Part shown: positions 124-45,587 of the stretch, in pieces
Layout: every line of letters begins with the position of its first letter
Numbering within the stretch: the first letter of the stretch is position 1
IMG/VR virus record: IMGVR_UViG_3300031746_000019
Span: 1 to 58,517 of that record
DNA length: 58,517 bases
Source of the DNA: a virus
Taxonomy: Duplodnaviria > Caudoviricetes
Reading direction: 5' to 3' (one strand)
The notes under the pieces: model-generated
Seen by the model: the letters and a program-made list of their open reading frames with translations, nothing else
What the model was told of the DNA's origin: nothing
Database searches by the model: none
Position numbers and translations under genes: made by a program

Positions 124-131
124 CTTATACC
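124..131 (-). promoter_or_regulatory. Candidate phage-specific promoter motif GGTATAAG
   Basis: The same 8-mer recurs at 18432, 26198 and 38099, with a variant at 491. All copies are intergenic, and four of the five lie upstream of minus-strand gene starts. Confidence 0.55.
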
Positions 132-156
132 TATTTGATCAATCTGTTTGTAGGCT

Positions 157-192
157 AAAATGAGGCCCCCCGGTGTGCTCACGAGGGGGGAT
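157..192 (-). terminator. Possible intrinsic terminator after the 69-aa gene
   Basis: On the minus strand a CCCCCC...GGGGGG stem is followed by CCUCAUUUU; the loop is large. Confidence 0.35.
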
Positions 193-238
193 CGTATGCG
201 CCGATCCGGGGGACCTCAAGCTGCTACGAGGGGGGGGC

Positions 239-448: not shown

Positions 449-490
449 GTCCGTCTCCTTTGCAAAGGTTAGTACTTCGGTACCATAGGC

Positions 491-498
491 CTTATGCC
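491..498 (-). promoter_or_regulatory. Candidate phage promoter motif variant GGCATAAG
   Basis: One mismatch to GGTATAAG; about 43 nt upstream of the ATG at 448. Confidence 0.45.
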
Positions 499-530
499 AA
501 TATTTGATCTGGTTTTCACGTCCGTGGGTT

Positions 531-553
531 AAAATGACCCCCCGGAGGGGGTC
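531..553 (-). terminator. Intrinsic terminator ending the replication operon
   Basis: GACCCCC-UCCG-GGGGGUC hairpin followed by AUUUU on the minus strand, directly after the stop at 555-553. Confidence 0.7.
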
Positions 554-738
554 TAGAGGGAGTTTGACCGGAGGACCTTGATCAGGTCCTCCCGGTCATC
601 GATGTTGCTCACATCCACCTCAAGAACGAGCTGGCTGGCAAGCAACTTGAGGCCGTCCAAGGTCAGGTCGGCCAGGAAGTCTTCGGTGATGTATGTCAGA
701 TCTTCGGGAGCAGGGGGCCTGACGTTCCCCTCTACTAG
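553..738 (-). CDS. -1 frame C-terminal extension (about 61 aa, Rho-N/HeH-like helical motif) of the 735..1232 protein
   Basis: Open frame LVEGNVRPPAPEDLTYITEDFLADLTLDGLKLLASQLVLEVDVSNIDDREDLIKVLRSNSL* has no suitable start codon of its own and begins at a G_GGA_AAC heptamer. Confidence 0.65.
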   Translation of the reverse strand, partial: LVEGNVRPPAPEDLTYITEDFLADLTLDGLKLLASQLVLEVDVSNIDDREDLIKVLRSNSL

Positions 739-744
739 TTTCCC
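695..744 (-). other. Programmed -1 ribosomal frameshift signal (slippery heptamer + H-type pseudoknot)
   Basis: G_GGA_AAC (744-738) is in frame directly before the stop. It is followed by a 6-nt spacer UAGUAG, stem 1 AGGGG/CCCCU and stem 2 GUCAGG/UCUGAC. Confidence 0.7.
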
Positions 745-1232
745 TCTTCCCCGTCCTTCTGGAACGCCTCATCCAGCTCTGCGATCCTGGGGTCGAGCTC
801 GTCCGGCTCGTAGGCGGACTTGAACAGGTCCATCACCAGCCCGGAGAGGATGTAGAGCTTGCGCTCCAGCTCGTTCAGATGCTCCGTGGTGGCTTCGTGG
901 TTCTCATCCATGCCCTTCCCGATGGCCTGGAGGTGCTTGACCACGTCAGCTCCCGTGATGGTAGCTGCTGCCTTGCCCTTCGGGGGCTCTGGCTCCGTCT
1001 CCTCCGGCTCCTTGGGGGCGGATGCGAGCTTGCCCTTCCCTGCCGGTGGGGCACCCTTGCCCTTCCCCTTGCTCTTCCCATTCCCGGACTGAGACTCCAA
1101 GATCAGGGACACCAGCTCGTCCGTCTTGTGGTTGGTGGCGGTCCGGTTGTCGATGCCGAGTACCTGCACGGCGGCACGGCGCAGGTCGACGCGGGACAGG
1201 TTTCTGAGTTCTTCTTCGGTGTATTCGGACAT
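735..1232 (-). CDS. Hypothetical protein with N-terminal Rho-N/HeH-like helical motif and C-terminal coiled coil (165 aa)
   Basis: Start reassigned to MSEYTEEEL at 1232, which gives a TAATG overlap with the upstream gene. Motif 'ELRNLSRVDLRRAAVQVLGI...KTDELVSLILESQ'. Confidence 0.6.
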   Translation of the reverse strand: MSEYTEEELRNLSRVDLRRAAVQVLGIDNRTATNHKTDELVSLILESQSGNGKSKGKGKGAPPAGKGKLASAPKEPEETEPEPPKGKAAATITGADVVKHLQAIGKGMDENHEATTEHLNELERKLYILSGLVMDLFKSAYEPDELDPRIAELDEAFQKDGEEGN

Positions 1233-1453
1233 TACCTTCTTCTCCTGGGTTTGGCGCTCGGCTCTTGTTTGACTAGCCCGAATCTGAGCGCTTGCGATCC
1301 GAGCGTATCCTTCAGCACCTTCCTTGCCTCCAACTCGTATCTCTCTGCCCTGAACCAGTTCTTGCATCGGTGCGTATCCAGAATGAGTGCGTGGTCACAG
1401 GCATCCTGGCAGTCATCCAGGTGTCGGCAGGTGCTACAACAGTGAGGGATCAC
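1232..1453 (-). CDS. Small Cys-rich hypothetical protein (73 aa)
   Basis: CCSTC..DDCQDAC...C pattern; start and stop overlap both neighbours. Confidence 0.6.
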   Translation of the reverse strand: MIPHCCSTCRHLDDCQDACDHALILDTHRCKNWFRAERYELEARKVLKDTLGSQALRFGLVKQEPSAKPRRRR

Positions 1454-1779
1454 TTCTCCCTCACTCGTTCTAGAAGCCTGGGCTCACACTCCACCACGGC
1501 ACAGGCTCTGGCTCTGGCTGCTGGGCAATCCCAGCATGCGTAGAACTCACTTCCGCACTTGAGCTGGTTGTAAACGTCCTTCCACTCCTCCTTCATCATC
1601 ATCATGGCTTCTCGATCGTCATCTGCGGGGTCTTTGGTGACCTCGTCAGGGTCTATCCGTCCCTCTATCAGATCGATGAGCACTGGTCTTCCCAGACCGC
1701 GATGAGCGGACAAGCAGCCGGCCTTTCGTGCCAGCTCCGCTAGCTCCGTGAGGTTCAGGTTTGCGTAGTTGTAGGGCAT
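1450..1779 (-). CDS. Hypothetical protein with HeH-like N-terminus and Cys cluster (109 aa)
   Basis: LNLTELAELARKAG motif; C..CWDC..C..C; its stop overlaps the next start. Confidence 0.6.
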   Translation of the reverse strand: MPYNYANLNLTELAELARKAGCLSAHRGLGRPVLIDLIEGRIDPDEVTKDPADDDREAMMMMKEEWKDVYNQLKCGSEFYACWDCPAARARACAVVECEPRLLERVREK

Positions 1780-2221
1780 CGTAAGCCTCCTTTGTCAGTC
1801 CCACCTCCTCTTCGGGGACCCTGCGTAGGACTACGTACAGGCCAGGGCTCTGTGGGTTGCAGTGCTTCTCCTGCTTGAGGCGGAAGTTGTGGGAATCATC
1901 CAGCCCTACAGCCTCCGAGACGGTGTCTTCGATCAGCTTGATGCGATTGGAGAGATCGATCTTCTTGTACCTGTCTCCTTTTGAGGAGTTCTGGTTCTCC
2001 ACCTGGGGGAAGAAGAGGACCAGGTGAAGCTCGTAGGGGACGTTCTTCTGAACCTGCATCAGAGATACACGCCCCTCCTGCTGGATGGTCTTCATGGCCC
2101 TGATCTTGAACGTCCGGGCTTCCTGACTTAAGATCCTCCCCTTGCCGGAAGGATGCCGGATGTAGATGTTGTTCGAAGACGGCGGGAAGTAGGGCACCCA
2201 GATATTCAAGACGTCCATCAC
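1646..2221 (-). CDS. rusA: RusA-family Holliday junction resolvase
   Basis: PPSSNNIY N-terminal motif and the D-L-S-N-x-x-K-x-x-E-D......DDS catalytic pattern of RusA. Confidence 0.75.
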   Translation of the reverse strand: MMDVLNIWVPYFPPSSNNIYIRHPSGKGRILSQEARTFKIRAMKTIQQEGRVSLMQVQKNVPYELHLVLFFPQVENQNSSKGDRYKKIDLSNRIKLIEDTVSEAVGLDDSHNFRLKQEKHCNPQSPGLYVVLRRVPEEEVGLTKEAYDALQLRKPEPHGASGAGTKGRLLVRSSRSGKTSAHRSDRGTDRP

Positions 2222-11631: not shown

Positions 11632-11940
11632 TTAGCCTCCTAGCCTGATGCAGACGATGGCCCCTTTGCTGTAGATGTGGCGTTTCCCGCCTTCTGTGAG
11701 ATCGGGGCTGATGCAGATGTTGTAGCGGTCAGTCCACAACAGTAGGCCTTGTACCTCCCTGCCAGTCAGGAGGTCGACATTTACGACCTTGCCGAGCCAG
11801 TTCCTGATCTCTGCGTGCCAGTTGTCGTGCACGTTGAGTAGGTCTTTGAGCGCCTTCACCTCTTTCTCTAGGTGATCGTGTCTGTCTTTCTGGCCTTGGA
11901 CTTTCTTCGCCAGCCCATCCAGTGTCAGCTTCTGCGGCAT
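11632..11940 (-). CDS. Hfq/Sm-like RNA-binding protein with N-terminal coiled coil (102 aa)
   Basis: 'VNVDLLTGREVQGLLLWTDRYNICI...HIYSKGAIVCI' parallels the Hfq Sm1/Sm2 motifs. Start reassigned to ATG 11940 with a GGAG SD. Confidence 0.65.
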   Translation of the reverse strand: MPQKLTLDGLAKKVQGQKDRHDHLEKEVKALKDLLNVHDNWHAEIRNWLGKVVNVDLLTGREVQGLLLWTDRYNICISPDLTEGGKRHIYSKGAIVCIRLGG

Positions 11941-11973
11941 GTGTTCTCCGAGGAAAGGGGGAAGGGAAAGCAT

Positions 11974-12015
11974 CACCACTAGCCCCGTGTGCGTCAATCG
12001 CTAGGGCTAGTGGTG
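11974..12015. terminator. Intergenic 12-bp inverted repeat (possible terminator or processing site)
   Basis: CACCACTAGCCC (11974-11985) pairs with GGGCTAGTGGTG (12004-12015); a pyrimidine-rich tract follows on the minus strand. Confidence 0.45.
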
Positions 12016-15052: not shown

Positions 15053-15459
15053 CTCCGCTCCCTCCGGTGAGGATGCCCCTCATCGGGCATGCTTCCAGTC
15101 ACTACGATTCCCGCCTTCTCGACTCGGTGTCTCAGCTCCTCTACCTCCGCATGCTCGATCATCTTCTGGACTACCTCCATTGCGTCCTCATCTTCTTCGG
15201 GCCACCACCAGGACACCGGACGGATCCTCATGAGGATCCCAGCTCGAGCGATGGAGTTACTAGTCAGAATGTTCTGCTGTGCCACTCCCTGTGGGCCTGG
15301 GACGAGAATGGTGCGCAGGCAACGGCACTCCCCCAAGAAGATGAAGCTGCTCAGACGATCGCTGATTCCGGAATCATCCAAGGGAGTCTTCCCGAGATAG
15401 AGTAGCTGTGGAGTCCCGTCAGAGACTAAGACCCACTTGTCAGAGTTCGGCTTGTCCAT
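15049..15459 (-). CDS. Hypothetical protein (136 aa)
   Basis: In operon with overlapping start/stop. Confidence 0.6.
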   Translation of the reverse strand: MDKPNSDKWVLVSDGTPQLLYLGKTPLDDSGISDRLSSFIFLGECRCLRTILVPGPQGVAQQNILTSNSIARAGILMRIRPVSWWWPEEDEDAMEVVQKMIEHAEVEELRHRVEKAGIVVTGSMPDEGHPHRRERR

Positions 15460-17974
15460 CAGTACCCTCCATGTATGGACGGAGGACGGTGTAGTCCAGG
15501 GGACCTCCCTGATCTACGGGCCATCCTCTCAGTTGCTTCTTCAGGGTGGTGCACATCTTGTGCATCTTCGGCACGTAGATGTAGTCCAAGATCACAACAA
15601 CCGGCGTCTTCTTCCCCTCCCTGTGCCGCTGGATTCTGCCGATGCCTTGCTGGAGGGTGTTGAACCCACCCTCCTCAATCGCAGAGCTCCCGAATGGAGT
15701 CAGGAAGAACAAGGTGTCGAGAGACGCCTCATCCAGCGCTTCTTTCACAAGCTGGAGTGTGCCGAAGCTAAGTCTCTTTGTCTGGATGGTGGTGATTCGA
15801 TCCTCGGGCTTCTCATTCCCGGTGCAGAGTCCGGAGTCAGCAAACATGGCATTGAGCATTTGCAGTTGCTCAACACTGTGGCTGAGTGCCAGCACCTTCC
15901 TCCCCGATTCGAGAGGCTTTCGGAGCTTGCTGGCGATGAACTCGTTGCACTCAGGATGAGTCCCGAGGTAGTTGCGGAGACGCGGGATACAGAGCTTCCC
16001 GTTCTTGTCGTTGATGGCTTCTTGAACGAGGGGATCGTTCAAGTTGGGTCTGAACGCACACGCCTGGAAGTAGACACGAGGCTTCAGGTCTTGGCTTAGG
16101 TCTCGGAAGTAGGCCTGGCCGATGTGGTACTGGTACATCGCTTCCAGGCCGTCTTCTCTGTTGGTCGTAGCTGTCAGTCCGTGTCGTTCTCCGTAGAACA
16201 GGGGCGCAGTCGGAAGGAAAAGGGGTGCAGAAACGTGATGGCAGTTGTGTACTACGGGGCCTCGACCAACTAGGTACGTTGGGCTTCCTTTGATCTGGAG
16301 ATTGTAGACAAGACCATTCGGACAACGTCCGCCAAATGTCCCGTCACTTGTTTGTTGGTGTACCTTAGTACGATCCACCCTAGTCCACGCAGGAAGGCGT
16401 CTTTCCGAGCGTCCTGTTCTCGCCTCTGAAAGGACTGGTGTGATTGGCCGTCCACCTCTATGGCGATCTTCAGTGCCTCGTTCGCTATATCGATTTTGTA
16501 GTGCGTGGGTGCCCCGACGGGCCTCCGACCCTTGGTGGAGATCGTAACTTCCATGGGCCAACCTAGAGAGCTGGCCAGTAGCTGCTGTGGGGCGGGAATC
16601 TCGCGTCCATTCCCTCCCTGTACTGGAGGGTGCCACCCCATGGCGCGGAGAGTTGTCTTCTGCTTCTCTCGCGTCACTGCATCGCTCATCGGGTTCTTCT
16701 TCTTCATACGTCGAGAGTTGATCTTTGCTCTCCGTGTGTTGGTGTCGTGCGCCACCTCGGAGCTTCTCTTCGATCTCCACACAGCCATACAATCTGCGGA
16801 GCAGTACGCCCTTCCAGAACGCCGCCATTGCTCTAGAGCCTTCCGCCCATGCACGAGCACCTGCCCCCCACAGTTGGCGCAAGACGTGTGGAACTTTGTG
16901 CACCTGCTTTGTCTTCTCTCCTCTAAGCACATCTGGCAGTAGGCCCCGGTCCCCTTTCCCGCTGTTGGTTTCCCACATTGGCAGGTCTTCTTCACGTCTC
17001 TGCTCCTTCATGAAGCACAACACCACATCTTCGCACGTCAAATGAATAGCGGCAACCCACCTTCGTTGAGTCCAGAAGGGGTGGTTGTGTGTGCAGACAA
17101 TCTCCTCACCACCAACGATCACGGACATGAGATTACGGGGCCGGGACACGAAGACGTGTTCGACTGGCTGCTTGGTTATTGATCCAGTGTCCTCATCAAA
17201 GGACCAGACTAGATCTCCGACCTTCCTTTGTTCTATGGGGATGCCATCCACAGGCGTTCCGGCTACGAAGCACTCGTCGTATATGACCAGGCCGAAGTAT
17301 CGATCGATGCCCATAGGTAGTTGGGCATGGCGGAGCCCAAGGGAGTGGATCATGGCAAGGACTATGCCCCGCCCTTGCCAGTCCCACTTGTTCGGGGGCC
17401 CTTGAATCAGACCGATGCCTCCGGGCACATCCAGGAACTCCTGGATTCGGTCACGCCACTGATTGATGAGCGTGGTGTTGTTCACGATTACTAGAGCTGG
17501 CACCTTCCGTTGTTCTATCAGGTGAAGTGCCAGTACCGTTTTCCCTTTGCCACAACTCAGATTCAGCAAACCTCCATGTGAAGAGCACATGGCAGCGGCT
17601 GCCAGCTTCTGTGTTTGTAAGTGTGGCTTTTGGGCATCGAGAACAATGCGGCTCTCGAACTCGACTCTGGGTGGCGGGTCTGGAGTAATAGAGACGACAG
17701 GGAACTGCAACGATCCCAACTCTCCATACGGGATGAAGGAGCGAGGAACCACGAGGTGGTCCCCCACATCCTCCCACAGCTGGATGTACTTCAGCCCCTC
17801 GCTGTCCATCACAGGGAACTCGAGCCCTGCCTTCACTGCTCGAGTATTGATGTGTGCCTTGGGCAACCATAGCTGTCTGCCTAGGTAACCTTTGTTCGGA
17901 TCTAGACGGATGAAGATCAAGTCGCCTCCAATTTCATGACGGACGTCATGAAACCTCCAACTACTTGGAATCAT
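15440..17974 (-). CDS. Superfamily 2 DExH helicase (UvsW/XPB-like) interrupted by an intein
   Basis: Motif I CGKGKT; motif II DE|CH reconstituted after splicing; motif III GLTAT; motif VI QGIGRIQR. Confidence 0.85.
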   Translation of the reverse strand: MIPSSWRFHDVRHEIGGDLIFIRLDPNKGYLGRQLWLPKAHINTRAVKAGLEFPVMDSEGLKYIQLWEDVGDHLVVPRSFIPYGELGSLQFPVVSITPDPPPRVEFESRIVLDAQKPHLQTQKLAAAAMCSSHGGLLNLSCGKGKTVLALHLIEQRKVPALVIVNNTTLINQWRDRIQEFLDVPGGIGLIQGPPNKWDWQGRGIVLAMIHSLGLRHAQLPMGIDRYFGLVIYDECFVAGTPVDGIPIEQRKVGDLVWSFDEDTGSITKQPVEHVFVSRPRNLMSVIVGGEEIVCTHNHPFWTQRRWVAAIHLTCEDVVLCFMKEQRREEDLPMWETNSGKGDRGLLPDVLRGEKTKQVHKVPHVLRQLWGAGARAWAEGSRAMAAFWKGVLLRRLYGCVEIEEKLRGGARHQHTESKDQLSTYEEEEPDERCSDAREAEDNSPRHGVAPSSTGREWTRDSRPTAATGQLSRLAHGSYDLHQGSEARRGTHALQNRYSERGTEDRHRGGRPITPVLSEARTGRSERRLPAWTRVDRTKVHQQTSDGTFGGRCPNGLVYNLQIKGSPTYLVGRGPVVHNCHHVSAPLFLPTAPLFYGERHGLTATTNREDGLEAMYQYHIGQAYFRDLSQDLKPRVYFQACAFRPNLNDPLVQEAINDKNGKLCIPRLRNYLGTHPECNEFIASKLRKPLESGRKVLALSHSVEQLQMLNAMFADSGLCTGNEKPEDRITTIQTKRLSFGTLQLVKEALDEASLDTLFFLTPFGSSAIEEGGFNTLQQGIGRIQRHREGKKTPVVVILDYIYVPKMHKMCTTLKKQLRGWPVDQGGPLDYTVLRPYMEGTDGQAEL
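16244..17272 (-). mobile_element. Intein (343 aa) in helicase motif II
   Basis: Starts CFVAGT; block B CTHNHPF; ends VYNLQI...VVHN followed by +1 Cys. Confidence 0.9.
16270..16995 (-). CDS. DUF559/Vsr-like endonuclease with N-terminal Cys-rich zinc fingers, nested out of frame inside the intein
   Basis: Own AAGGAG SD and GTG start; CxC..CxxC, CxxC..YCSxxC; 'YKIDIA.....IAIEVDGQSH......DARKDAFLRGLGWIVLRYTN'. Confidence 0.85.
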   Translation of the reverse strand: MKKTCQCGKPTAGKGTGAYCQMCLEERRQSRCTKFHTSCANCGGQVLVHGRKALEQWRRSGRAYCSADCMAVWRSKRSSEVAHDTNTRRAKINSRRMKKKNPMSDAVTREKQKTTLRAMGWHPPVQGGNGREIPAPQQLLASSLGWPMEVTISTKGRRPVGAPTHYKIDIANEALKIAIEVDGQSHQSFQRREQDARKDAFLRGLGWIVLRYTNKQVTGHLADVVRMVLSTISRSKEAQRT

Positions 17975-26273: not shown

Positions 26274-29200
26274 ATGGCTCGTCTTTCACCCGAAGAGGGG
26301 TTCGAGCTCCTCAAGGAAAGGGTGACTAAAACAGTCGATGGCCTCTTCCCCATCGTTGGGAAGAAGCACACCCTCGAATTGAAGAATGTCAACGTCGTCG
26401 ACGATCTCCACATTGACGACATTCGATCTCAGAAAGATGCGAAGGTCAATGGCCGCACCTGGGCCGTGCCCGTGGAAGCTACGGTCGCGCTTAAGGACAA
26501 CGTGACAGGCAAGGTAGTTGATCAGCAGAAGCTGAAGCTGATGAGCCTGCCAAAGTACACTCGTCGCTACTCCCACATTGTGGACGGGCAAGAGTATCAG
26601 ATCGATAACCAGTGGCGACTGAAGTCTGGGGTGTACGCTAGAGTAAAGGACAATGGGGAGCTCCAGTCTCAGTTCAACTTGGCCAAGGGTCGTGGTTTCA
26701 ATCTCGGATTCGATCCCCAGTCACGTCAGTTCACGATGGAGTACGGAACATCCAACATTCCATTGCGCCCACTGTTGCGGGAGCTTGGTGTTGGACAGGA
26801 CGAGATCGAGTCCAGGTGGGGCAAGGATATCGCGGGAGCTAACCCACACACTTCCGACCAGGCCTTGCTGAAGTTCTACAAAGCGGCCACAGGAAAGAAG
26901 GCTGATAGCGTAGATCAAGCACGTCTGCATCTACACGAGACGCTCGCAGGTACGGCTCTACTGCCCGCAACAACACGCATCACGCTGGGCAAGGAATACA
27001 AGTCTGTCACCGCTCCAGCGCTCATGGATGCTGCCACCAAGCTGCTTCACATCTCTCAAGGAAAGGCTCAGCCAGACTCACGAGACTCGCTGATGTTCAA
27101 GGAGCTGCACTCGACTGAGGACTTCATGTCCGAGCGCATCCAACAACACAGCCGGGACATCATGCGTAAGATCCAGAACAACTTAGATCGAAAGACCAAG
27201 GTACGGGAGGTGGTGGGCCCCGACATCTTCCAGAAGCCAGTACGCACGATGTACCGCACCACGCTGGCCAACATCCCAGAGCAGACCAACCCGCTAGAAA
27301 TGATCTCTGGTCAGTTCAAGACCACCATCACCGGGGAGGGCGGCGTCAAGAGCGCACATAAGATCTCAGAGGAAGCCAAGCTAGTTGATCCATCCCACCT
27401 CGGGTTCCTTGACCCTATCCACACACCTGAAGGTCAGTCCACGGGTGTCACTCTTCGTCTTCCTCTTGGTGTGAAGAAGCAGGGTCATGACGTACTGATC
27501 CGCATGCACAACATCAAGACTGGGAAGATGGAAAGCCTGAATCCTGAGCAGGCGATGACTACCAGATTCGTACTGCCGGACCAGGTAGAGTGGAAAGGGA
27601 GCAAGCCAGTACCCACAGGGAAGAGTGTCAAGATCAGTGGGGTGGGTAATGAGATCGTCCAAGGCTCTCTGAAGGACGCGCAGTACATCATGAAGGACCC
27701 CCTTCAGATGTTCTCGATCGCATCCAATCTGATCCCATTCATGCCTGCTGATCACCCGAACCGAAGCACGATGGCCGGTAGGCATATGGAGCAGGCCATT
27801 CCTCTTGCCGCTCGACAGCAACCGCTAGTGCAGAGCCTGGCCGGGAAGTCTTCCTTCGATCGCATCGTCGGCACCTTCGCGGGACATGACTCCCGGCATG
27901 ATGGAGAGGTTGTAAAGATCAAGCCAGACGGCATCACCATCAAGACGGCTGGAGGAAAGCTGATCGAGCAACAGATCTACGACAACTTCCCTCTGAATGC
28001 AGACAAGGCGTTCTTGCATTCCACCCCGCTCGTGAAGGTGGGGGACAAGGTGAAGAAGGGCCAGCCGCTGGCTGATACCAACTTCACCAAGGGGGGAGTC
28101 CTTGCGTTGGGGACGAACCTCCGCGTCGGGTACATGCCCTACAAGGGGTACAACTACGAGGACGGAGTCGTCATCAGTGAATCGGCGGCGAAAGACCTGT
28201 CCAGCGAGCACCTGCATAGAGCATCGCTTACGATAGATCCCAAGACCCACATTCTGGACACTGAGAAGTTCCGCTCCTATGTTCCTCAGGCTATGACTCG
28301 GGAGCAGGTCCGGAAGCTAGATGACGGAGGCGTCATCAAGCCCGGTGAGGTGGTACTCCCCGGAGATACTCTGATCGCTGCGCTGCGCAAGCGGCAGGAG
28401 CGGATGGAGGACAAGGAGCTTGCCCGTCTTCACAAGTCCTTGGTGAAGCCTTACCTCGACTCCAGTGTGAAGTGGGAGTCTGACTATCCGGGGGTCGTCA
28501 CGGAGGTCATACGTAGAGGTAAGGAGGCGATGGTCCACATCAAGACGCTCGAGCCCGCTGAGATCGGTGACAAGCTGGCTGGCAGGCACGGCAACAAGGG
28601 CATCATCACCAAGATCATTCCAGATCTTGAGATGCCCGCCACCAAGGATGGAAGACCCGTTCACGTACTGATGAACCCCACTGGCATACCTGGTCGAGTG
28701 AACCTGGGTCAGGTGCTGGAGACTGCGGCTGGAAAGATCGCGGAGAAGACAGGCTCAACGTACTACATCAAGAACTTCACCCCCAACACGGACCTCCACG
28801 CCGTGGTCACCGCAGACCTGAAGAAGCATGGGATCTCAGACAAGGAGGTCGTGGTAGACCCCACCACAGGACAAGAGCTCGGCTCAATCCTGGTTGGGCC
28901 GCAACACATCATCAAGCTCAAGCACCAGGTGGAGAAGAAGCTCGTCTCCAGAGCTGGCGGTTCCGGGTACACCTACGATCGGAACCTCGTACCCAAGGGC
29001 GGCGGACCTCATGGTGCCCAAGCACTTGGTCAGCTGGGGCTTTACTCCATGCTTGCACATGGAGCGAAGGCGAACCTGCGCGAGATGCAGACGATCAAGA
29101 GTGATGCAGCCCAGAGTGATGAGTTCTGGGCCGCCCTACAGGCTGGCGAGCCACTGCCTGCTCCGCGTCCTACGTTCGCGTACAACAAGTTCATCGCGTA

Positions 29201-32200
29201 CCTGAATGTCCTCGGGCTGAACGCCAAGAAGGACGGGAACAATCTTCAGCTCATCCCATTCACGGATAAACAGATCTTGGAGATGAGCAATGGTGCCATC
29301 AAGGACGCCGGGAAGATGGTCCGGGCCAAAGACCTGAAGGAGGAGAAGGGCGGACTGTTCGACCCTCATGTGACGGGGGGACATGACGGGACGAAGTGGG
29401 CGCATCTAACGTTGCCGGAGGCGTTGCCGAATCCGCTCTTCGAACGTGCGATCCAATCGCTTGTGGGTGTCACGGGCAAGCAGTACGACGACATCATCGC
29501 TGGAAGATTGGCCGTAGATCCAACCAAGGGGACCCTGACGAATGATACAGAGCGTCACCTAACCGCAGGTAAGGCGTTCTCTCGACTCCTCCAAGGCATC
29601 GATGTACCTAAGCAGCTCGAGGCAGCCAAGAAGGCGTTGGATAATCCCAACCTCAAGGGCAACCGCCTAGATCAAGCCAGCAAGAAGGTTCGATACCTAT
29701 CGGCGCTACAGAACGCAGGGTTGACTCCTCATGAGGCGTACATGACCAAGTACATCCCGGTCATACCGCCCATCATGCGTCCTCTGTCACAACGGCCAGA
29801 CGGGGAGATCAATTACGACGACCTGAACCATATGTACAAAGGCATTGGTCTGTCAGCCAGTAGGCTGGAGGGTGCATCTCCCCTACTTCCACAGAGCGAG
29901 CTGCACGAGATTCGTGCTGACATCTACGATGGGATGCGCTCATTGACTGGACTGGGTGGCCACGCCAATCGAGAAGCACGTGGCGTGTTGGACATCATCC
30001 AGGGGCATCGACCGGAGCGTGAGGGAGGAAAGGGGACGGGTCAGAAAGTTGGAAGCCCGAAGGAGGGATACTTCCAGAAGAAGCTGACTCAGCGGAAGCA
30101 AGATCTCTCCATGCGCTCCACCATTATCCCCGAGCCGGGGATGGGACTGGACGAGGTAGGGCTCCCAAGGTCGGCGGCGATGGAGATCTACAAGCCCTTC
30201 GTCATCCGGGAGATCAGGGGACTCACCGGGGTGAGCCCACTCGAAGCGCAGAAGCAGATCAAAGAAGGCGGCCCACTGGTATCCAGGGCGCTCGAGCGGG
30301 TGATGGAAGCTCGCCCTGTGCTCTTGAAGCGAGACCCCGTACTTCACAAGTATGGTATCCAGGCGTTCAAGCCCAGGATCGTAGCGGGAAAGGCCGTCCA
30401 GATCCATCCCCTCGTCACGTCCGGATTCAATGCGGACTTCGACGGGGATGCCATGTCTGCCTTCGTCCCAGTAGGAACAGACGCGGTAAGTGAAGCGTAC
30501 AAGATGCTTCCTTCACGCAATCTGTATAGCCCATCAACGGGCGATCTGATGTACCGACCCACCCACGAGTCACAGCTCGGACTTTACGGCCTGACCACTG
30601 TCGGCACGAAGACAGGCAAATCATTCAAGACAGTACCTGAAATGGAAGAGGCGCTTCTCAAAGGTAGCCTGAAACACAACGATCAGGTGAAGGTGGGCGC
30701 CTTCTCTTCCACTGCTGGTAGGTTTCTACTCTCCGCAGCATTGCCGGAAGCCATGCGAGCGGACTTCCTCAAGGGCAAGGAGCCGCTAGACGGAGGTGGG
30801 CAAGGCCGTCTACTCGAGCAGCTAGCCAAAGACCACCGGAATGACTACGGCATCGTCGTGAACAAGCTGAAGGACCTTGGGAACCGATGGTCCACCCAGT
30901 CCGCTTTCAGCATTGGAATGGAGGACACGAAGCCCGAGAGGGAACTGAGGGATTTAGTCTTGGACAAGGCCCATGCGGAGGTAGCACAGATCAAAGCCAA
31001 GACTCCTCATGAACGTGACGCCAAAGCCATACAGATCTATGGCAAGGCAACCCAGGAGTTGCAGAAGCAACTCAAGGCACTCCCCGATTCCCGAAGCAAC
31101 CTGTTCGTCATGTCCAGGGCTGGCATCAAGCCTGGAGACGATGCTCTCCGACAGATCAAAGTTGCCCCGATGTTGATCGCCAATGCCAAGGGCGAGACCA
31201 TCCCGCACCCTGTCACGAAGTCCTACTCGGAGGGGTTGGACATCGCTGACTACTGGACCTCCATGTCTGGGGCACGCAAAGGGATCATTCAGAAGGTGCA
31301 GCAGGTTCAGAAGCCTGGGTATATCTCCAAGCAGGTCATGAACTCGGTGATGGACAACATCATCGTCGATGATGACTGTGGTACCACGAAGGGCATCGCG
31401 CTGCATGTGGATGAGAAGGACATTTTAGACAGGCATCTTGCTGCGGACGTGAAGGTAGGCAAAAAGATCATCCCAGCCGGGACCCTAGTCACGCCAGATA
31501 TCCGGAGCACGCTTCGCAACAACAAGGTGGGGAGGGTTATGGTCCGCTCACCTCTTCGTTGCCAGCATGGTCCTGGGATCTGCAAGAAGTGTTTCGGTTT
31601 GACAGAAGATGGCAGGCATCCGGAGGCAGGCACCAACGTAGGAGTGATGGCGGGACAAGCATTGGGGGAGCGCGCCACACAGCTTGCGATGAAAGCGTTT
31701 CACACGGGGGGCACTGCTGCATCCAAGGAAGGTCTCGTGGATGAGTTTGAGCGGGTGCAGAACCTACTTCTCTTCCCGAAGACGCTGCCTGGATCTGCTA
31801 CGCTAAGTACCATGAGCGGGCGAGTGGAGAAGGTAGAGAAGGACCCAGCTGGAGGGCACAGTGTCTACATTGGGGGGCAGAGGCACTACGTCCCACAGAG
31901 TCGCGGTATCCCCGCCATTGAAGGGGAGATACTCAAGCGTGGGACTGAGGTGAAGAAGGGGGCCCCGATCTCTGGTGGTCCGATCAATCCCCACGAGATG
32001 CTACCTCTTACAGGTATCGAGCCGGTGCAGGGGTACCTAGCGGGGGAACTGCACAAGATCTATGGAGCGCACGGTATCCGCCGTAGGAACACGGAGGTTG
32101 TGGTAAAAGCGTTGACGAACCTCACCAAGATCGATGACCCTGGCAGTCATGGTGGGTTCATTCGCGGAGACTTTGCCCCGACATCTCTGGTCGCGAACAT

Positions 32201-32444
32201 CAACAGGCAGATGCCCAAGACGGGTAAGCCTGTGCTACACCAGCCTGTGCTCCGTGGTGTCAACGTCCTTCCTCTTGACATGCAGGAGGATTGGATCGCC
32301 AGAATGAATCACCAGAACATCACGAAGACTGTCACCGAGGCGGCGCAAGAGGGATGGACATCGAAGATGCACGGCAAGCATCCAATCCCACCTGTTGTGT
32401 ACGGGGCGGAGTTTGGCAAGGGCCCCAAGCACTGGGAGTACTGA
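26274..32444 (+). CDS. DNA-directed RNA polymerase, fused beta and beta' subunits (2056 aa), probably virion-associated
   Basis: Beta motifs TPEG, GYNYEDG, GDKLAGRHGNKG, NPTGIPGRVNLGQ, KLKHQ. Beta' motifs GLFDP, IPVIPP..RP, LKRDPVLH, NADFDGD (30429-30449), RSPLRC..IC..CFG, GERATQLAMKAFHTGG. Confidence 0.95.
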   Translation: MARLSPEEGFELLKERVTKTVDGLFPIVGKKHTLELKNVNVVDDLHIDDIRSQKDAKVNGRTWAVPVEATVALKDNVTGKVVDQQKLKLMSLPKYTRRYSHIVDGQEYQIDNQWRLKSGVYARVKDNGELQSQFNLAKGRGFNLGFDPQSRQFTMEYGTSNIPLRPLLRELGVGQDEIESRWGKDIAGANPHTSDQALLKFYKAATGKKADSVDQARLHLHETLAGTALLPATTRITLGKEYKSVTAPALMDAATKLLHISQGKAQPDSRDSLMFKELHSTEDFMSERIQQHSRDIMRKIQNNLDRKTKVREVVGPDIFQKPVRTMYRTTLANIPEQTNPLEMISGQFKTTITGEGGVKSAHKISEEAKLVDPSHLGFLDPIHTPEGQSTGVTLRLPLGVKKQGHDVLIRMHNIKTGKMESLNPEQAMTTRFVLPDQVEWKGSKPVPTGKSVKISGVGNEIVQGSLKDAQYIMKDPLQMFSIASNLIPFMPADHPNRSTMAGRHMEQAIPLAARQQPLVQSLAGKSSFDRIVGTFAGHDSRHDGEVVKIKPDGITIKTAGGKLIEQQIYDNFPLNADKAFLHSTPLVKVGDKVKKGQPLADTNFTKGGVLALGTNLRVGYMPYKGYNYEDGVVISESAAKDLSSEHLHRASLTIDPKTHILDTEKFRSYVPQAMTREQVRKLDDGGVIKPGEVVLPGDTLIAALRKRQERMEDKELARLHKSLVKPYLDSSVKWESDYPGVVTEVIRRGKEAMVHIKTLEPAEIGDKLAGRHGNKGIITKIIPDLEMPATKDGRPVHVLMNPTGIPGRVNLGQVLETAAGKIAEKTGSTYYIKNFTPNTDLHAVVTADLKKHGISDKEVVVDPTTGQELGSILVGPQHIIKLKHQVEKKLVSRAGGSGYTYDRNLVPKGGGPHGAQALGQLGLYSMLAHGAKANLREMQTIKSDAAQSDEFWAALQAGEPLPAPRPTFAYNKFIAYLNVLGLNAKKDGNNLQLIPFTDKQILEMSNGAIKDAGKMVRAKDLKEEKGGLFDPHVTGGHDGTKWAHLTLPEALPNPLFERAIQSLVGVTGKQYDDIIAGRLAVDPTKGTLTNDTERHLTAGKAFSRLLQGIDVPKQLEAAKKALDNPNLKGNRLDQASKKVRYLSALQNAGLTPHEAYMTKYIPVIPPIMRPLSQRPDGEINYDDLNHMYKGIGLSASRLEGASPLLPQSELHEIRADIYDGMRSLTGLGGHANREARGVLDIIQGHRPEREGGKGTGQKVGSPKEGYFQKKLTQRKQDLSMRSTIIPEPGMGLDEVGLPRSAAMEIYKPFVIREIRGLTGVSPLEAQKQIKEGGPLVSRALERVMEARPVLLKRDPVLHKYGIQAFKPRIVAGKAVQIHPLVTSGFNADFDGDAMSAFVPVGTDAVSEAYKMLPSRNLYSPSTGDLMYRPTHESQLGLYGLTTVGTKTGKSFKTVPEMEEALLKGSLKHNDQVKVGAFSSTAGRFLLSAALPEAMRADFLKGKEPLDGGGQGRLLEQLAKDHRNDYGIVVNKLKDLGNRWSTQSAFSIGMEDTKPERELRDLVLDKAHAEVAQIKAKTPHERDAKAIQIYGKATQELQKQLKALPDSRSNLFVMSRAGIKPGDDALRQIKVAPMLIANAKGETIPHPVTKSYSEGLDIADYWTSMSGARKGIIQKVQQVQKPGYISKQVMNSVMDNIIVDDDCGTTKGIALHVDEKDILDRHLAADVKVGKKIIPAGTLVTPDIRSTLRNNKVGRVMVRSPLRCQHGPGICKKCFGLTEDGRHPEAGTNVGVMAGQALGERATQLAMKAFHTGGTAASKEGLVDEFERVQNLLLFPKTLPGSATLSTMSGRVEKVEKDPAGGHSVYIGGQRHYVPQSRGIPAIEGEILKRGTEVKKGAPISGGPINPHEMLPLTGIEPVQGYLAGELHKIYGAHGIRRRNTEVVVKALTNLTKIDDPGSHGGFIRGDFAPTSLVANINRQMPKTGKPVLHQPVLRGVNVLPLDMQEDWIARMNHQNITKTVTEAAQEGWTSKMHGKHPIPPVVYGAEFGKGPKHWEY

Positions 32445-38111: not shown

Positions 38112-39950
38112 GTGAGCGGGGTTTCAGTGGCAGTCATCAGCCTGGCAGAAGCGGCCATACTCAAAGAAGCGAAGCTCATCCCCCTCTCTTGGTCCATCGA
38201 CCGGGGAAACTCTGAACCCTGGTTCGACTACGATGAGGAGGGCAACCCCACAGACTACGGGTTTGACTCCGAGCCGGAAGATCCAACCATCGAAGATCTG
38301 ATGGGCCTGGATGCATCCAAGTTCATATATGACATCAAGCCATCCCAATTCGCTGAGACTTCGATCCGTATCCCCGAGGCGGGGAGGATCGCAGACTTCA
38401 AGTTCGAGGGGCGTGACTACCTCCGGCGGATCTACGACACCAGTGCGGACAAGGTACTACTGAAGTGCGGACGTCAGGTTGAGAAGTCGACCACCTTGGG
38501 AAACAGGCTGCTCTGCTATTCCGCCCTGACCAACAACTTCCGATCCCTCTTCGTTGCTCCCTCTGCTGAACAAGCCAAGGTATTCTCGGTAGACCGTATC
38601 AAGGACGTCATCGAGAGCTCGCCACTCTTGAAGGCGTACACCACTACCAAGATCAACCAGGCGGTGTTCTTCAAGAAGTTCATCAACTTCTCACAGATCA
38701 GACTCCGCTATGCGTACCTCACGGCTGACCGAGTTCGTGGTATCCCAGCAGATCTGATCTGCATCGACGAGCTACAGGACATTCTCGTAGACAACATCCC
38801 GATCATCGAGCAGTGCGCCTTCCACTCTCACTACAAGCTCTTCATATACTCGGGCACCCCAAAGTCTGAGGACAACACGCTCGAGCACTACTGGCAGGAG
38901 TTCTCCACTCAGAATGAGTGGGTAGTTCCGTGTGATAGGCACGGCACGCCAAACAATCCCTCGTCTTGGCACTGGAACATCTTGGGGGAGAAGAACATCG
39001 GTAAGAAAGGATTGATCTGCGACCAGTGTAAGGAACCCATCAGCGCAGCTCATCCGATGGCTCGATGGGCCTCGATGAATCCCAGGTCGGAGAACAATGT
39101 AGAGAAGGTAACCTTCGAGGGCTATCGCATCCCCCAAATCATGGTCCCCTGGGTGGACTGGGTAGAAATCTTGGAAGCACAGGAGCACTACCCTCGCGCT
39201 CAGTTTATGAACGAGAAGCTCGGGCTATCCTACGACTCCGGGAATCGGCCCATCACGAAGGCTCAGCTTGAGGCTTGCTGCCGACCACACATTCGTCTCA
39301 CTGACATCGAGAACTTCCGCCGCCTGGCACAAGGCCGACCCATCTACGCTGGCATAGATTGGGGCACGGGAGAGCGGTCGTACACAGTGATCGCTCTCGG
39401 TGGGTACTTTGGATCGACCAACTTTTCCATCTTCTACGTTCATCGGTTTACCGGACCCGACCTCGAGCCAGATCGGCAGCTGGACCTCATCTCCCAAATG
39501 ATCACGCAGTTACAGGTACAGGTCATTGGCTGTGACTACGGCGGTGGCTTCCACAACAACAAGACCCTCATCCAGAGGTTCGGGGCAAACAAGGTCATCA
39601 AGTACCAGTACAACCCCAGGCAGAAGAAAAAGATCTACTGGGAGCCCAATCTCCAGCGGTACATGTGCCAACGCTCCGAAGTGATGAGTGACATGTTCTC
39701 CGCTCTCAAGAAGAAGCTGATCGATCTACCTTGCTGGGATGACTTCAGGGAACCTCACGGCCAAGACGTGCTCAACATCTTTAGTGAGTACAACAATCGC
39801 CTGAGGATGGAGGAGTTCAAGCATGCGCCGGGAAAGACAGACGATACGTTTCACGCCATCCTCTACTGTTTGCTCGCTTCGATGATCCAGCATCCGCGCC
39901 CCGATATCATCCAGGCGATCAAGGACACTGGTATGGGCAGGGGTACCTAG
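38112..39950 (+). CDS. terL: Terminase large subunit (GpA-like)
   Basis: Walker A-like KCGRQVEKST, 'RVRGIPADLICIDE' Walker B, SGTP motif III, nuclease motifs AGIDWG and DDTFHA; exact start uncertain. Confidence 0.9.
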   Translation: MSGVSVAVISLAEAAILKEAKLIPLSWSIDRGNSEPWFDYDEEGNPTDYGFDSEPEDPTIEDLMGLDASKFIYDIKPSQFAETSIRIPEAGRIADFKFEGRDYLRRIYDTSADKVLLKCGRQVEKSTTLGNRLLCYSALTNNFRSLFVAPSAEQAKVFSVDRIKDVIESSPLLKAYTTTKINQAVFFKKFINFSQIRLRYAYLTADRVRGIPADLICIDELQDILVDNIPIIEQCAFHSHYKLFIYSGTPKSEDNTLEHYWQEFSTQNEWVVPCDRHGTPNNPSSWHWNILGEKNIGKKGLICDQCKEPISAAHPMARWASMNPRSENNVEKVTFEGYRIPQIMVPWVDWVEILEAQEHYPRAQFMNEKLGLSYDSGNRPITKAQLEACCRPHIRLTDIENFRRLAQGRPIYAGIDWGTGERSYTVIALGGYFGSTNFSIFYVHRFTGPDLEPDRQLDLISQMITQLQVQVIGCDYGGGFHNNKTLIQRFGANKVIKYQYNPRQKKKIYWEPNLQRYMCQRSEVMSDMFSALKKKLIDLPCWDDFREPHGQDVLNIFSEYNNRLRMEEFKHAPGKTDDTFHAILYCLLASMIQHPRPDIIQAIKDTGMGRGT

Positions 39951-41790: not shown

Positions 41791-42465
41791 ATGAACCCAG
41801 TCGAAGAGTTCCTCGAGCTACAGAAGCAAGCGAACTGGCTTGGTGACTTCGGCAGGGCTCTGGTTGGTCATGGCCCGGGACAGGGAGGTTCCGCCTCGAC
41901 TGCTGCGCAGCTCTTTCAGGCTCCCCTTGCCGCCGCTGCGATAGCGGGTACTGGGCTAGGGATCAGCAAGGGCGTGGGAGCGATCAGAGAGCATTTTGGT
42001 AAGGCTCGGGACTTCCAGAGGATGGTTGAGGAGAACCCATCGCTTCAGAAGGAAGACGCCCGGCACGTCCAGATGCTCTACAACTCTCTGCGTCGCCTCT
42101 CTCCCACGATGGCCAAAGATCCTCTTCTGGCTGGCTCATTCGTACGAGACTCAATCCGCTTCGGACCCGAAGGAGGTCCAGCCGTAGCTCCAAGTACGGC
42201 TAAGATGCTTGCGGATACAGAGAAGGGTGTGGCCGGGGCTGGGAAGAGACATCCAATTCTCGATCTCCTGGGCGGTGTGGGCCGTATAATGCCTCCGCAA
42301 CAGAAACACGAGCTCCCACCGCAGCTAGTAGGACATATCGAAACTCGACGTAATCTCCCAGGGCGCTCTGGAACAATTAGCGCAAAGCAGAACGTATACG
42401 ATCCAGCCGAATGGAACCGCATGTCGGCCGCCGCCGCCGGGGTAGCAGGCCAAACTAACCCATGA
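41791..42465 (+). CDS. Leader-like virion protein (224 aa)
   Basis: MNPVEEFLELQKQA followed by a Gly/Ala hydrophobic segment. Confidence 0.6.
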   Translation: MNPVEEFLELQKQANWLGDFGRALVGHGPGQGGSASTAAQLFQAPLAAAAIAGTGLGISKGVGAIREHFGKARDFQRMVEENPSLQKEDARHVQMLYNSLRRLSPTMAKDPLLAGSFVRDSIRFGPEGGPAVAPSTAKMLADTEKGVAGAGKRHPILDLLGGVGRIMPPQQKHELPPQLVGHIETRRNLPGRSGTISAKQNVYDPAEWNRMSAAAAGVAGQTNP

Positions 42466-45400
42466 TCGTCAAGGTTTGCCAATTCCACGCTCGCAGTGAG
42501 CAGGGTGAGCGTCTCGTCGAGGTCTTCCATCCGGGGGACATGGAGAAGGCCGCTGCGTTCTTCGATATGGAGAAGCGTGGCGCTCCTCTCCTACCCGAGG
42601 TGCAGCGGTATCTCCAGAACCTGAAGCCCAACCCGAATAAGATCTACGTGCTCGTCAATGCCCTGGGCGCTGGAGAGTACTGGGGTTCGAATATCAACGG
42701 GGACTACTTCCCAGAAGGCTCATTGATCCATACTGGTCCAGTGTATGGCTACGAGACCTTCTACCAGGCCCATCCCTACAAGCACCACGTCAACAAGGAC
42801 CCAAGCCGGTCCTTCGGACGTGTGGAGCTCTCGGTCTGGCATGACGGAATGAAACGTGTCGAGCTGGTGGTTAGGATCGATCGAGATCTAGCCGCAAGGT
42901 TTGGCGCGCAGGATGTCTGTGACAAGATTGATCACGGGATGTTCCCAGACGTATCGATGGGCTGCCTCCCAGAGGGGAGTCCTGTCTTCCGTGCCGATGG
43001 ACGTCGAGTCCCCATCGAGACGATCAAAGAGGGGGATAGCGTCCTTACCCATAAGGGCAGGCCCCGTCGGGTCACGTCTGTGATGGCTCGTCCACACAAG
43101 GGGTCGATCTATCACGTCAAGGCGTATGGACATCGTGACGCCCTGGTGCTGACCGGGGAACACCCTTTGTGGCTCATTCGCCAAGAACAGATGGAGTGCC
43201 GCCCGTCCCCCAAGACTGTGAACAGGGGCCGGAAGCAGCACGTCTGCACTCCGGACAGCAGCCACTCCAAGATGGGCTGCGCGGGGTGTTCTACCTCTCC
43301 CCAGTACCAGTTCGAGTGGGTCCGTACCGATGAGGCGTGTGAAGGGGATTATCTGGCGATCCCGGTTCCCAATTACAAGACCAACATCAGGTTCACAGCT
43401 GATCAGGCGCGACTGCTGGGGTACTACTTGTCCGAAGGGCTCGTCCTTCGCACGAAGGCCGGCACCCCCATGGCCGTTCAGTTCTGTACGAATCTCTGGG
43501 AGATCCAGACACACGCGGAGTTGTACCAGCTAGGGGAGCGGCTGGGCTTGAATGTGACGGAGTACGACGCAGAGGATCGAAACGGGAAGTACATCAGCAT
43601 CTGGGACAGATCACTGGCAGAGTTGTGCTCTCAGCATTGTGGTGAGAAGGCACTGACGAAGAGGTTGTCGAGCGATCTGATTAGTGCTGACGTAGAGACA
43701 CTTCTCCTGCTTTTGGGTGCTTACGCCAACGGGGACGGTGGCTGCTACAAGGGCTCTCTCTACTTCTCTACTGCCTCGGAGGAGCTGTCAGAGCAACTGC
43801 GTCTAGTTCTGGCCCGTTGTGGGATGATCGCCTCGGTCAACGAGCTTGTTCACAAACCTTCGAAGCTTGTTCCCAAAGAGACCGTCGAGTTTCAGGTGTG
43901 GGTCGGGACTGACACAGCCTGGAAGCTGACGACGGCTCACGTACCTTTTGGGAAGTCAGATCGACTTTGCAGCAAGCGCTTCTTCTACACATACGAAGGC
44001 GTCACGTACCTGGTGACGCCCATCGAATCTGTGGAGGAGACCCCCTACGACGGTGACGTCTACAACTTCGGGGTAGAAGAAGACGAAAGCTACCAGGTGG
44101 AAGGACTTGCGGTCCACAACTGCAAGGTCCCCTACGACATCTGTTCTGTCTGCACAGACTGGGCGAAATACAGGGATGCACAGGCCACCTATGAGCCAAG
44201 CAGACACAAGTCAGCTGGTGCTGCGGTACTCGAGTTCCATCGTAAGAACCCCATTCGGGGTATCTCTGTCACCCGCAACGACTACTGCACCCATCTCAAG
44301 AATCAGCTCAACAAAATTCTTGAGGATGGGCGTAAGGTCTATGCGATCAACGACTACCCTAGGTTCTTCGACATCAGCTTCGTCTTCATCGGTGCGGACA
44401 AGACGGCCAAGGTAATGGCCAAGCTAGCATCGGGCGCGGACTGCGTACCTTCCTGGTATGTTGCCGAGCAGATGGGCTACGATATGCCCTTGATGGAGAA
44501 GGAATTCGAAAAGGCGGCAGTGGCAGGTGGTCTGATTGACGATCTCCTACAAGGTGCCCGAGCGCGCTACAGCCCGGATGCTCTGAATACGAAGAAGATC
44601 GTAAAGCTGGTCACCAAGGCCAAAGAGCGTATGGACGCCCCTCCCCCCATCAAGAAAGAGGGCAGCGTCGCATCTGTGAGGGCACTGCTCCGAGAGAAAA
44701 GGGCTTCCCACAAGAAGGGCGCGGAGATTACAAAGGATGTGGTCCCCTCTCAGTTTGGGGGAAAGGCCGTGCCCGTGGATCGAAACACCCCAGACCTACC
44801 GAATGAGATCTTGGACAGGTTGGGAAAAGGGCCACTCGAAGAAGCACTCTCCACCCCTTCTTCCTTGGGTATGCTCCTCCGGCCTCGAGAGTTCCAGCGC
44901 ATCACCATCATCAGCATCGGTCGTAAGGACCTCGCGGACAAGATGGACGAGGAGGGCAAGGTGTTCCCTCCGACCTCTGACCGTGACGCATCCCTTCCTA
45001 TGGGCGGGGAGCACATCAGCGACGTCATCAAGAAGCTCTTGCTTCCGTTCTTGGAGGACAGGAGCTACTTGGAGCCAGTGGCCAAGAGAAGAATGGCTCG
45101 TAGCGCGGGTGAGAGCTCGAAGGCACCCCAGGTAGAGAAGGTAAAGAGAGCTGCTGTAGAAACCCCCTTCCTACGGAAGATCTCCGCAGCCTATAATGGC
45201 TACCTAGATCGAGCGATAGGATGTTTCAAGTACGCGGCAGAAGCTGTTAACAATGACCCGGAGTTGTGGGAAGCTGTGTTCCACTCTGGGTTGGCTGATG
45301 GGTTCGAGAAGCAAGCAGAAGAGAAAGTGAATCCAGCAGTAGTGCTTGGTGCAATTGGCGGCGGGTGGGCTCTCAGCGAATACGCACGGAGACAGAGAAG

Positions 45401-45587
45401 CAAGGCCATGCAGGGGAACAGAGAGCCAGTGGGACCGATTACAGACCTGATCGCGGAATATCCGAAGATCCTGATGGTCTTGGCCGGTCTCGGTGCATTG
45501 CACCAGCAAGGTTCGTCAATCCCACGTAGACTCGTGGGGAGCTTGGGTGGCTTCGTGAAGGATCCGCTCGGGCCAGGGAAAAGCTAA
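42462..45587 (+). CDS. Prohead maturation protease (HK97/assemblin-like fold) with intein and long C-terminal extension
   Basis: N.NGDYF, 'HHVNKD....GRV', VSMG|C (putative catalytic Ser), 'FFDISFV..GAD.TA'; lies upstream of scaffold-like genes and the MCP. Confidence 0.7.
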   Translation: MIVKVCQFHARSEQGERLVEVFHPGDMEKAAAFFDMEKRGAPLLPEVQRYLQNLKPNPNKIYVLVNALGAGEYWGSNINGDYFPEGSLIHTGPVYGYETFYQAHPYKHHVNKDPSRSFGRVELSVWHDGMKRVELVVRIDRDLAARFGAQDVCDKIDHGMFPDVSMGCLPEGSPVFRADGRRVPIETIKEGDSVLTHKGRPRRVTSVMARPHKGSIYHVKAYGHRDALVLTGEHPLWLIRQEQMECRPSPKTVNRGRKQHVCTPDSSHSKMGCAGCSTSPQYQFEWVRTDEACEGDYLAIPVPNYKTNIRFTADQARLLGYYLSEGLVLRTKAGTPMAVQFCTNLWEIQTHAELYQLGERLGLNVTEYDAEDRNGKYISIWDRSLAELCSQHCGEKALTKRLSSDLISADVETLLLLLGAYANGDGGCYKGSLYFSTASEELSEQLRLVLARCGMIASVNELVHKPSKLVPKETVEFQVWVGTDTAWKLTTAHVPFGKSDRLCSKRFFYTYEGVTYLVTPIESVEETPYDGDVYNFGVEEDESYQVEGLAVHNCKVPYDICSVCTDWAKYRDAQATYEPSRHKSAGAAVLEFHRKNPIRGISVTRNDYCTHLKNQLNKILEDGRKVYAINDYPRFFDISFVFIGADKTAKVMAKLASGADCVPSWYVAEQMGYDMPLMEKEFEKAAVAGGLIDDLLQGARARYSPDALNTKKIVKLVTKAKERMDAPPPIKKEGSVASVRALLREKRASHKKGAEITKDVVPSQFGGKAVPVDRNTPDLPNEILDRLGKGPLEEALSTPSSLGMLLRPREFQRITIISIGRKDLADKMDEEGKVFPPTSDRDASLPMGGEHISDVIKKLLLPFLEDRSYLEPVAKRRMARSAGESSKAPQVEKVKRAAVETPFLRKISAAYNGYLDRAIGCFKYAAEAVNNDPELWEAVFHSGLADGFEKQAEEKVNPAVVLGAIGGGWALSEYARRQRSKAMQGNREPVGPITDLIAEYPKILMVLAGLGALHQQGSSIPRRLVGSLGGFVKDPLGPGKS
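42963..44120 (+). mobile_element. Intein (386 aa) with in-frame LAGLIDADG homing endonuclease
   Basis: Starts CLPEG; block B LTGEHP; LLGYYLSEG and LLGAYANGDG motifs; ends VYNFGVEEDESY...AVHN followed by +1 Cys. Confidence 0.92.

Follow-up and report, generated by a model that had tools for sequence, protein, structure and literature searches.

A probable −1 programmed ribosomal frameshift site is conserved at the close of the last gene in a phage recombination operon

The window analyzed here, by which we mean the whole stretch of 58,517 nucleotides, is a 58.5-kb IMG/VR viral contig (IMGVR_UViG_3300031746_000019) with a G+C content of 57.8%. Its first 18 kb encode, on the minus strand, a replication and recombination module that comprises a helicase with an intein, UDG, DnaB, primase, PolA, a RecA-like protein, and RusA. 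The gene that concerns us, whose product we refer to as P0001, is the final gene of a minus-strand operon in which it is preceded by an exonuclease-like ORF, p203, RusA, p109, and p73, and the operon is closed by an intrinsic-terminator-like element in which the hairpin proper occupies positions 551-538. The features of this locus are collected in Table 1. The gene order p203, RusA, p109, (p73), and family gene is common to all five of the other loci at which the family was studied in DNA. Within the operon of the window, the RusA ORF (1646..2221, minus strand), in which the Pfam match covers residues 12-132 of 191, overlaps the start of the next gene (1450..1779, minus strand) by 134 nt. We considered conserved dual coding in this overlap and rejected it: the overlap is similar in the related locus L003, yet it is just 35 nt in the AT-rich locus L011, so the long RusA tail looks like a by-product of the few stops in G+C-rich DNA.

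Table 1. Positions of the coding and RNA features at the end of the operon, numbered along the window.
Feature	Position	Strand	Basis
Zero-frame gene P0001, 165 aa, stop TAG 737-735	735..1232	-	sequence; codon log-likelihood 0.755 bits per codon
TGA that shuts the −1 frame, 10 codons 5′ of the heptamer	769..771	-	no start codon between the TGA and the heptamer
Slippery heptamer G_GGA_AAC in X_XXY_YYZ phase, Gly164-Asn165	738..744	-	invariant in 5/5 distinct loci
Tandem zero-frame stops TAG TAG, which double as the 6-nt heptamer-hairpin spacer	732..737	-	sequence
Hairpin (stem 1), AGGGG 731-727 with CCCCU 716-712, 10-nt loop, about −9 kcal/mol, 6-nt spacer	712..731	-	folding
Proposed pseudoknot stem 2, GUCAGG 723-718 with UCUGAC 700-695	695..723	-	pairing possible; within chance by one test and unconserved
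−1 extension, 61 codons (738-556) and stop TAG 555-553	553..738	-	codon usage, homologous extensions, variants
Intrinsic-terminator-like hairpin (CCCCCC/GGGGGG) and T run	531..551	-	directly 3′ of the extension stop; closes the operon

Several other features of the genome were recorded. On the minus strand, a ResIII helicase (15440..17974) carries a PT-HINT domain as an intein-like insert, and a 121-aa ORF (11632..11997) with an Hfq-related match (PF21979, E 8.8e-6, marginally under the curated cut-off) is placed between a DnaB-like helicase and a DUF932 protein. On the plus strand, a single 2056-aa ORF (26274..32444) contains Rpb2-type (beta) and then Rpb1-type (beta′) domains, making it a phage-encoded multisubunit RNA polymerase in fused form, and a 1041-aa ORF (42462..45587) is intein-like, its Hint and LAGLIDADG matches being weak and under or near the Pfam cut-offs. 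A tRNA scan of the window found none, an Rfam search of positions 1-3000 returned no match, and neither blastn with positions 1-3000 nor tblastn with P0001 found a match among GenBank phages. A protein atlas offered leads at 0.80 only, all of them Cyanobacteriota-labelled hypothetical proteins, and these were not used for host assignment.

P0001 has the C-terminus EEGN, its gene ends GAG GGA AAC TAG TAG, and the zero-frame stop stands directly 3′ of the heptamer in the window. The original prediction, made from the letters of the window alone, had placed an in-phase G_GGA_AAC at the end of this gene; both its position and its phase (744-738) were verified, and all of the coordinates given in that prediction are correct. 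Its description of the −1 frame also proved accurate, in that this frame is shut by the upstream TGA, has no start before the protein-like part begins, and runs for about 61 codons to a stop that abuts the terminator. In this phage, GGA makes up 19% of Gly codons. A heptamer census of the window found seven in-phase occurrences of GGGAAAG and two other in-phase GGGAAAC sites, at 38204 and 38498 (plus strand), both within the terminase large-subunit ORF (38112..39950) and leading into −1 ORFs of 1 and 21 codons only. These two heptamers are probably inconsequential or lie upstream of the true start, and the occurrence of GGGAAAC in phase twice in one ORF with no useful −1 ORF means that the heptamer alone is not diagnostic. 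The site itself is identical to that of the window in two other metagenome contigs (L005 and L006), which excludes an assembly error, and contigs from two sediment-metagenome runs, X6 and X9, span the heptamer without an indel. A metagenome scan returned two contigs, both identical to the window. No RNA run was among the sequencing runs listed as containing the stretch.

With the 61 codons of the −1 extension, the transframe product would total 226 aa. The extension is made up of a Pro-rich linker followed by a predicted helix-extended-helix domain (residues about 17-61). Twenty-eight long window ORFs served to train a codon model, which gives the extension 0.61 bits per codon when read in the −1 frame and −1.15 and −0.73 when read in the other two. 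The first TTG of the window's extension is codon 27 (position 660) and has no Shine-Dalgarno sequence, such sequences being clear at the neighboring window genes that were inspected, and there is no ATG or GTG until codon 41. The 24 codons ahead of the first possible start score 0.53 in the −1 frame, and in all five of the loci that carry the heptamer (see below) the −1 codon log-likelihood of the corresponding pre-start part of the extension is above zero. Seven variants, drawn from other sediment-metagenome contigs and all downstream of extension codon 27, are listed in 592-636; six of the seven change a third codon position when read in the extension frame, and five are synonymous. A comparison of the −1 and +1 frames past the stops of all 57 window genes was not discriminating, the alternative frames usually entering the next gene, and one search with the extension gave no match.

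An exhaustive phmmer search retrieved 49 proteins at E<=0.001, the query P0001 included, which range from 93 to 264 aa apart from one spurious 855-aa match. Leaving out three truncated sequences and the spurious match (P0025, P0039, P0041, and P0040) gives 45 full-length members, which stop where P0001 stops and of which none (0/45) has an in-frame extension past the G-N/K tail region. Within the last nine residues, G-N is present in 35 of the 45 and G-K in a further 5, and the stop lies 0-1 codons past this pair in 31 of the 40. The five members that lack the pair are P0028 (seen in DNA as L011), P0033, P0045, P0050, and P0053. In every one of the 40 tails, the Gly follows E, Q, S, A, L, K, M, or P, all of which can be encoded by an NNG codon. 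Residues with no such codon (D, N, H, Y, F, C, and I) account for 25.8% of these tails, which gives P of about 6.5e-6 when the members are treated as independent. Such an NNG rule is expected from a G_GGA_AA(C/G) constraint, not from a protein-level constraint. The DNA evidence comes from 6 distinct family members, and the other 39 full-length relatives were judged by their protein tails. Other routes to the family returned little. A word-index search with P0001 recovered only P0001 itself, and a second alignment-based scan gave low-complexity pattern matches only and no relative. Pfam and PHROG searches with P0001 and with the extension assigned no family at E<=0.01, a profile search of genome contigs found no prophage copy, and a full-text literature search found no description of the gene family.

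Five distinct loci (the window, L002, L003, L004, and L008) encode a family protein that ends in Gly-Asn, and GGGAAAC is in phase in all five. The proteins of the four relatives are 26-46% identical, each to its own search query, and 37-41% identical to P0001 by tblastn. In the five-locus DNA alignment, AGGGAAAC is the sole run of invariant columns, and the joint chance of the heptamer codon choices in the five loci, given the residues and the phage codon usage, is about 2e-5. The zero-frame stop follows the heptamer at a distance of 0 codons in the window, 5 in L002, 5 in L003, 6 in L004, and 1 in L008. That stop is TAG in each case (window 732..737; L002 3020; L003 3032; L004 2678; L008 2080), and in four of the five loci it lies within a shared AGTAG motif, where GTA is a Val codon in the −1 frame. 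The −1 ORF, 61 codons long in the window, has 62-69 codons in the four relatives and there stops just ahead of a terminator-like hairpin, as judged by eye.

The extension peptides of the five loci align over their full length, with 25-36% identity to that of the window; a Pro-rich stretch and a conserved Asp-Leu, both upstream of every canonical start, belong to the aligned part. Canonical starts in the extensions either stand at differing columns or do not occur before codon 19-29, and the ORFs that gene callers place in this region, 35-75 aa in length, differ in their start points. At the remaining locus, the AT-rich L011 (1489..1980 of IMGVR_UViG_3300031999_000094), the operon is the same and the homolog ends GSGRL. 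Neither heptamer nor extension is present in L011, where a terminator-like hairpin (by eye) directly follows the stop. With both elements absent from L011 and both present in the other five loci, the heptamer and the extension are found together or not at all, and L011 appears from its sequence to be a natural ‘short form only’ lineage.

The RNA downstream of the heptamer had been proposed to fold into an H-type pseudoknot. Its stem 1 hairpin is real, and what is conserved is the position of the hairpin. By a strict count, a hairpin of −9 to −20 kcal/mol starts 5-7 nt past the heptamer in four of the five loci, or in all five if the 7-bp core helix of L003 is included, and the background for such a hairpin is 179 of 1517 in-gene positions (11.8%). 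In the window the structure is weak, at about −9 kcal/mol, and ordinary folding of the downstream RNA was no better than that of shuffles (z 0.22 over 85 nt; −0.72 over 48 nt). Once stem 1 is fixed, a second stem of equal or greater length arose in 616 of 5000 shuffles (12%) and in 385 of 1581 random windows (24%). A rule fitted post hoc to the observed topology picks out just 1 of 10,576 background positions, and it describes none of the four relatives (0/4 for L002, L003, L004, and L008). A relaxed rule, which mostly reflects stem 1, describes 5/5 loci vs 293 of 2523 background positions. Of the pseudoknot in the original prediction, the pairings named are present and the position of stem 1 is conserved, but stem 2 lies within chance by one test and is unconserved. 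The same division emerges from the homologs, in which conservation had been suggested as a check, since the heptamer is retained in all five Gly-Asn loci and stem 1 keeps its position, but stem 2 does not recur. We regard the pseudoknot as a possibility only.

P0001 and the extension were modeled as separate parts. The AlphaFold model of P0001 (36-row alignment; pLDDT 84.6) is predicted to consist of a helical N-terminal domain (about 1-50; 6-48), a disordered, charged linker rich in Lys, Gly, Pro, and Glu (51-93), and a long helical hairpin (94-163). Foldseek ranks YqbF, the Rho N-terminal domain, and SAP domains on top for the N-terminal domain, all at E>=1.1. The model of the extension (11-row alignment; pLDDT 81.9, pTM 0.60) has helices at 19-24, 27-35, and 49-59, and here Rho N-terminal and SAP/LEM domains rank on top, at E>2. 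The Pfam profiles Rho_N (PF07498) and SAP (PF02037) have no match in P0001; a Rho_N match occurs in one of 36 relatives (E 9.7e-4), and no match to either profile was found among the 11 extension sequences. A direct comparison of the extension with the N-terminal motif of P0001 by hhalign gave E 0.0055 over 21 columns. The originally proposed resemblance between the extension and the Rho-N/HeH-like motif at the N-terminus of P0001 receives weak support from the hhalign comparison and from the fold rankings, which put Rho N-terminal and SAP/LEM domains first for both parts at low scores. A second Rho-N/HeH-like module is consistent with these models and remains a weak lead.

We consider it highly likely that the last gene of this phage recombination operon is closed by a conserved −1 programmed ribosomal frameshift site. 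Conservation across the family lends strong support to the original proposal that a −1 shift at G_GGA_AAC adds a C-terminal module to a non-tail protein. Most ribosomes would decode GGA-AAC, reach the TAG, and release the 165-aa protein, with its predicted N-terminal Rho-N/SAP-like domain, charged disordered linker, and C-terminal helical hairpin. In a fraction of ribosomes, tRNA-Gly and tRNA-Asn on G_GGA_AAC would re-pair to GGG_AAA. The hairpin 6 nt downstream probably assists this slip, and the neighboring stop codon may contribute. Slipped ribosomes would then translate 61 further codons in the −1 frame, giving the junction ..EEGN-LVEG.. and a 226-aa product that carries the Pro-rich linker and a putative second Rho-N/SAP-like domain at its C-terminus. 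Slippage very probably takes place at the heptamer, and its efficiency is probably low. Heptamers ending in AAC are much less shifty in E. coli than those ending in AAG (PMC5009743), and the efficiency at the present site may be very low. The originally proposed fixed ratio of two isoforms is an inference, as is nucleic-acid binding by the added domain, and the balance between the one-headed and two-headed proteins presumably matters.

Positions 553-738 could instead represent a separate small gene with its own internal or non-canonical start, in which case the heptamer would be irrelevant. The 35-75-aa ORFs that gene callers predict in the region point this way, and candidate starts can be named: the TTG at 660, a CTG or ATC further upstream, and, in relatives, an ATG at alignment column 31. 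L002, L003, and L008 share this ATG, preceded in L002 by a GGAGG at a distance of 11 nt, and P0060, a predicted ORF of a close relative, begins with Met at the window's codon 10. The column-31 ATG of three loci and the Met of P0060 make some independent initiation possible in some lineages. As the explanation of the locus, however, a separate gene is improbable. In the window, ATG and GTG are absent from the first 40 codons of the extension, and the first TTG is without a Shine-Dalgarno sequence; the start position is unconserved, the column-31 ATG being absent from the window and from L004; and both the peptide conservation and the coding-type codon usage reach upstream of every start. A separate gene would also leave the invariant in-phase heptamer and the 40/40 NNG rule unexplained.

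Other forms of recoding, either transcriptional slippage at GGGAAA or termination at the TAG followed by near-cognate re-initiation, would fit a zero-frame stop that lies at the site or no more than 6 codons from it in all five loci, yet we judge them very improbable. Transcriptional slippage needs homopolymers much longer than three G or three A, so the GGG and AAA runs are far shorter than slippage-prone tracts, and no indel variants occur in the DNA contigs; re-initiation, for its part, has no need of a phased X_XXY_YYZ heptamer or of the NNG rule. A single window cannot separate a frameshift mutation from a programmed site, and the extension could in principle be a dead remnant that is not made, left by an ancestral in-frame fusion broken by a 1-nt indel, or the product of an assembly error. 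Against the latter stand the two further contigs with an identical site and the contigs from two other runs that cross it without an indel. A remnant, in turn, sits badly with a frame arrangement that is the same in five lineages at 26-46% protein identity, with the lack of any in-frame extension beyond the G-N/K tail region in the 45 full-length homologs, and with extension variants that are mostly synonymous, and we give this last explanation almost no weight. Programmed −1 frameshifting at the heptamer is the reading that we carry forward.

The G/GT genes of phage lambda use a slippery heptamer of the G_GGA_AAx type. Lambda G/GT adds a tail-tube-binding T domain, whereas the family gene would add a predicted Rho-N/SAP-like domain, and the family gene closes a recombination operon after RusA, away from a tape-measure gene. 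Lambda G/GT and other tail chaperones share with the family gene a −1 slip on a heptamer of this type near the end of the upstream ORF, and they share with its predicted products a major short form and a minor C-terminally extended form, the arrangement being conserved despite protein divergence (PMC5009743). We considered a tail assembly chaperone as the identity of the family gene and rejected it, since the gene is in the wrong module, with no tape-measure neighbor, and has no Pfam or PHROG chaperone match. The same heptamer is known from other viruses. In Burkholderia phage KL1, GGGAAAC directly before a stop is described as the predicted shift site of a tail chaperone (PMC3483164), and G_GGA_AAC is given as the shift site of the archaeal virus HCTV-1 (PMC5009743). 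The KL1 genes gp18/gp19 belong to the tail module of a siphovirus and form a tail chaperone pair by prediction only; the family gene is located elsewhere.

A C-terminal domain added by frameshifting to a fraction of a protein is likewise described for gene 10 of T3/T7, for Lactobacillus phage A2, and for Ig-like domains (PMC5009743). Those cases concern capsid or tail proteins whose extensions are Ig-like or of other kinds, whereas here the protein belongs to a non-structural module and the predicted addition is helical. In E. coli dnaX, a −1 frameshift in a replication-associated gene sets the ratio of two isoforms, tau and gamma, and a downstream hairpin stimulates the shift. The dnaX shift truncates its product, however, and that of the family gene would extend it; the heptamers differ, and there is no sequence relation. 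Among annotated phage frameshifts in the SEA-PHAGES set used by PRFect, 2397 of 2476 are tail chaperones (PMC10885494).

Overall, the site adds a well-supported instance to an established kind of recoding, and the mechanism itself is not new. It places the signature outside tail chaperones, in an uncharacterized family of sediment-metagenome phages, with an invariant heptamer in an otherwise fast-evolving tail. Once the frameshift is recognized, annotation is put right throughout the family, which callers now split into a 165-aa protein and fragments of 35-75 aa, and frameshift studies gain a compact natural G_GGA_AAC signal of bacterial-virus origin. A broader proposal is tentative, and we hold it to be possible but doubtful: that the frameshift is family-wide and the first widespread one in a gene of a phage replication/recombination module, where it would set the ratio of one-headed to two-headed forms of a nucleic-acid-tethering protein. 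The minor long form, with a Rho-N/SAP-like domain at either end of a coiled-coil-like body, might then link two stretches of nucleic acid or anchor the recombination machinery, with a stoichiometry as essential as that of lambda G/GT. In these phages, selection appears to act on how much of the protein carries a second nucleic-acid-binding-like head.
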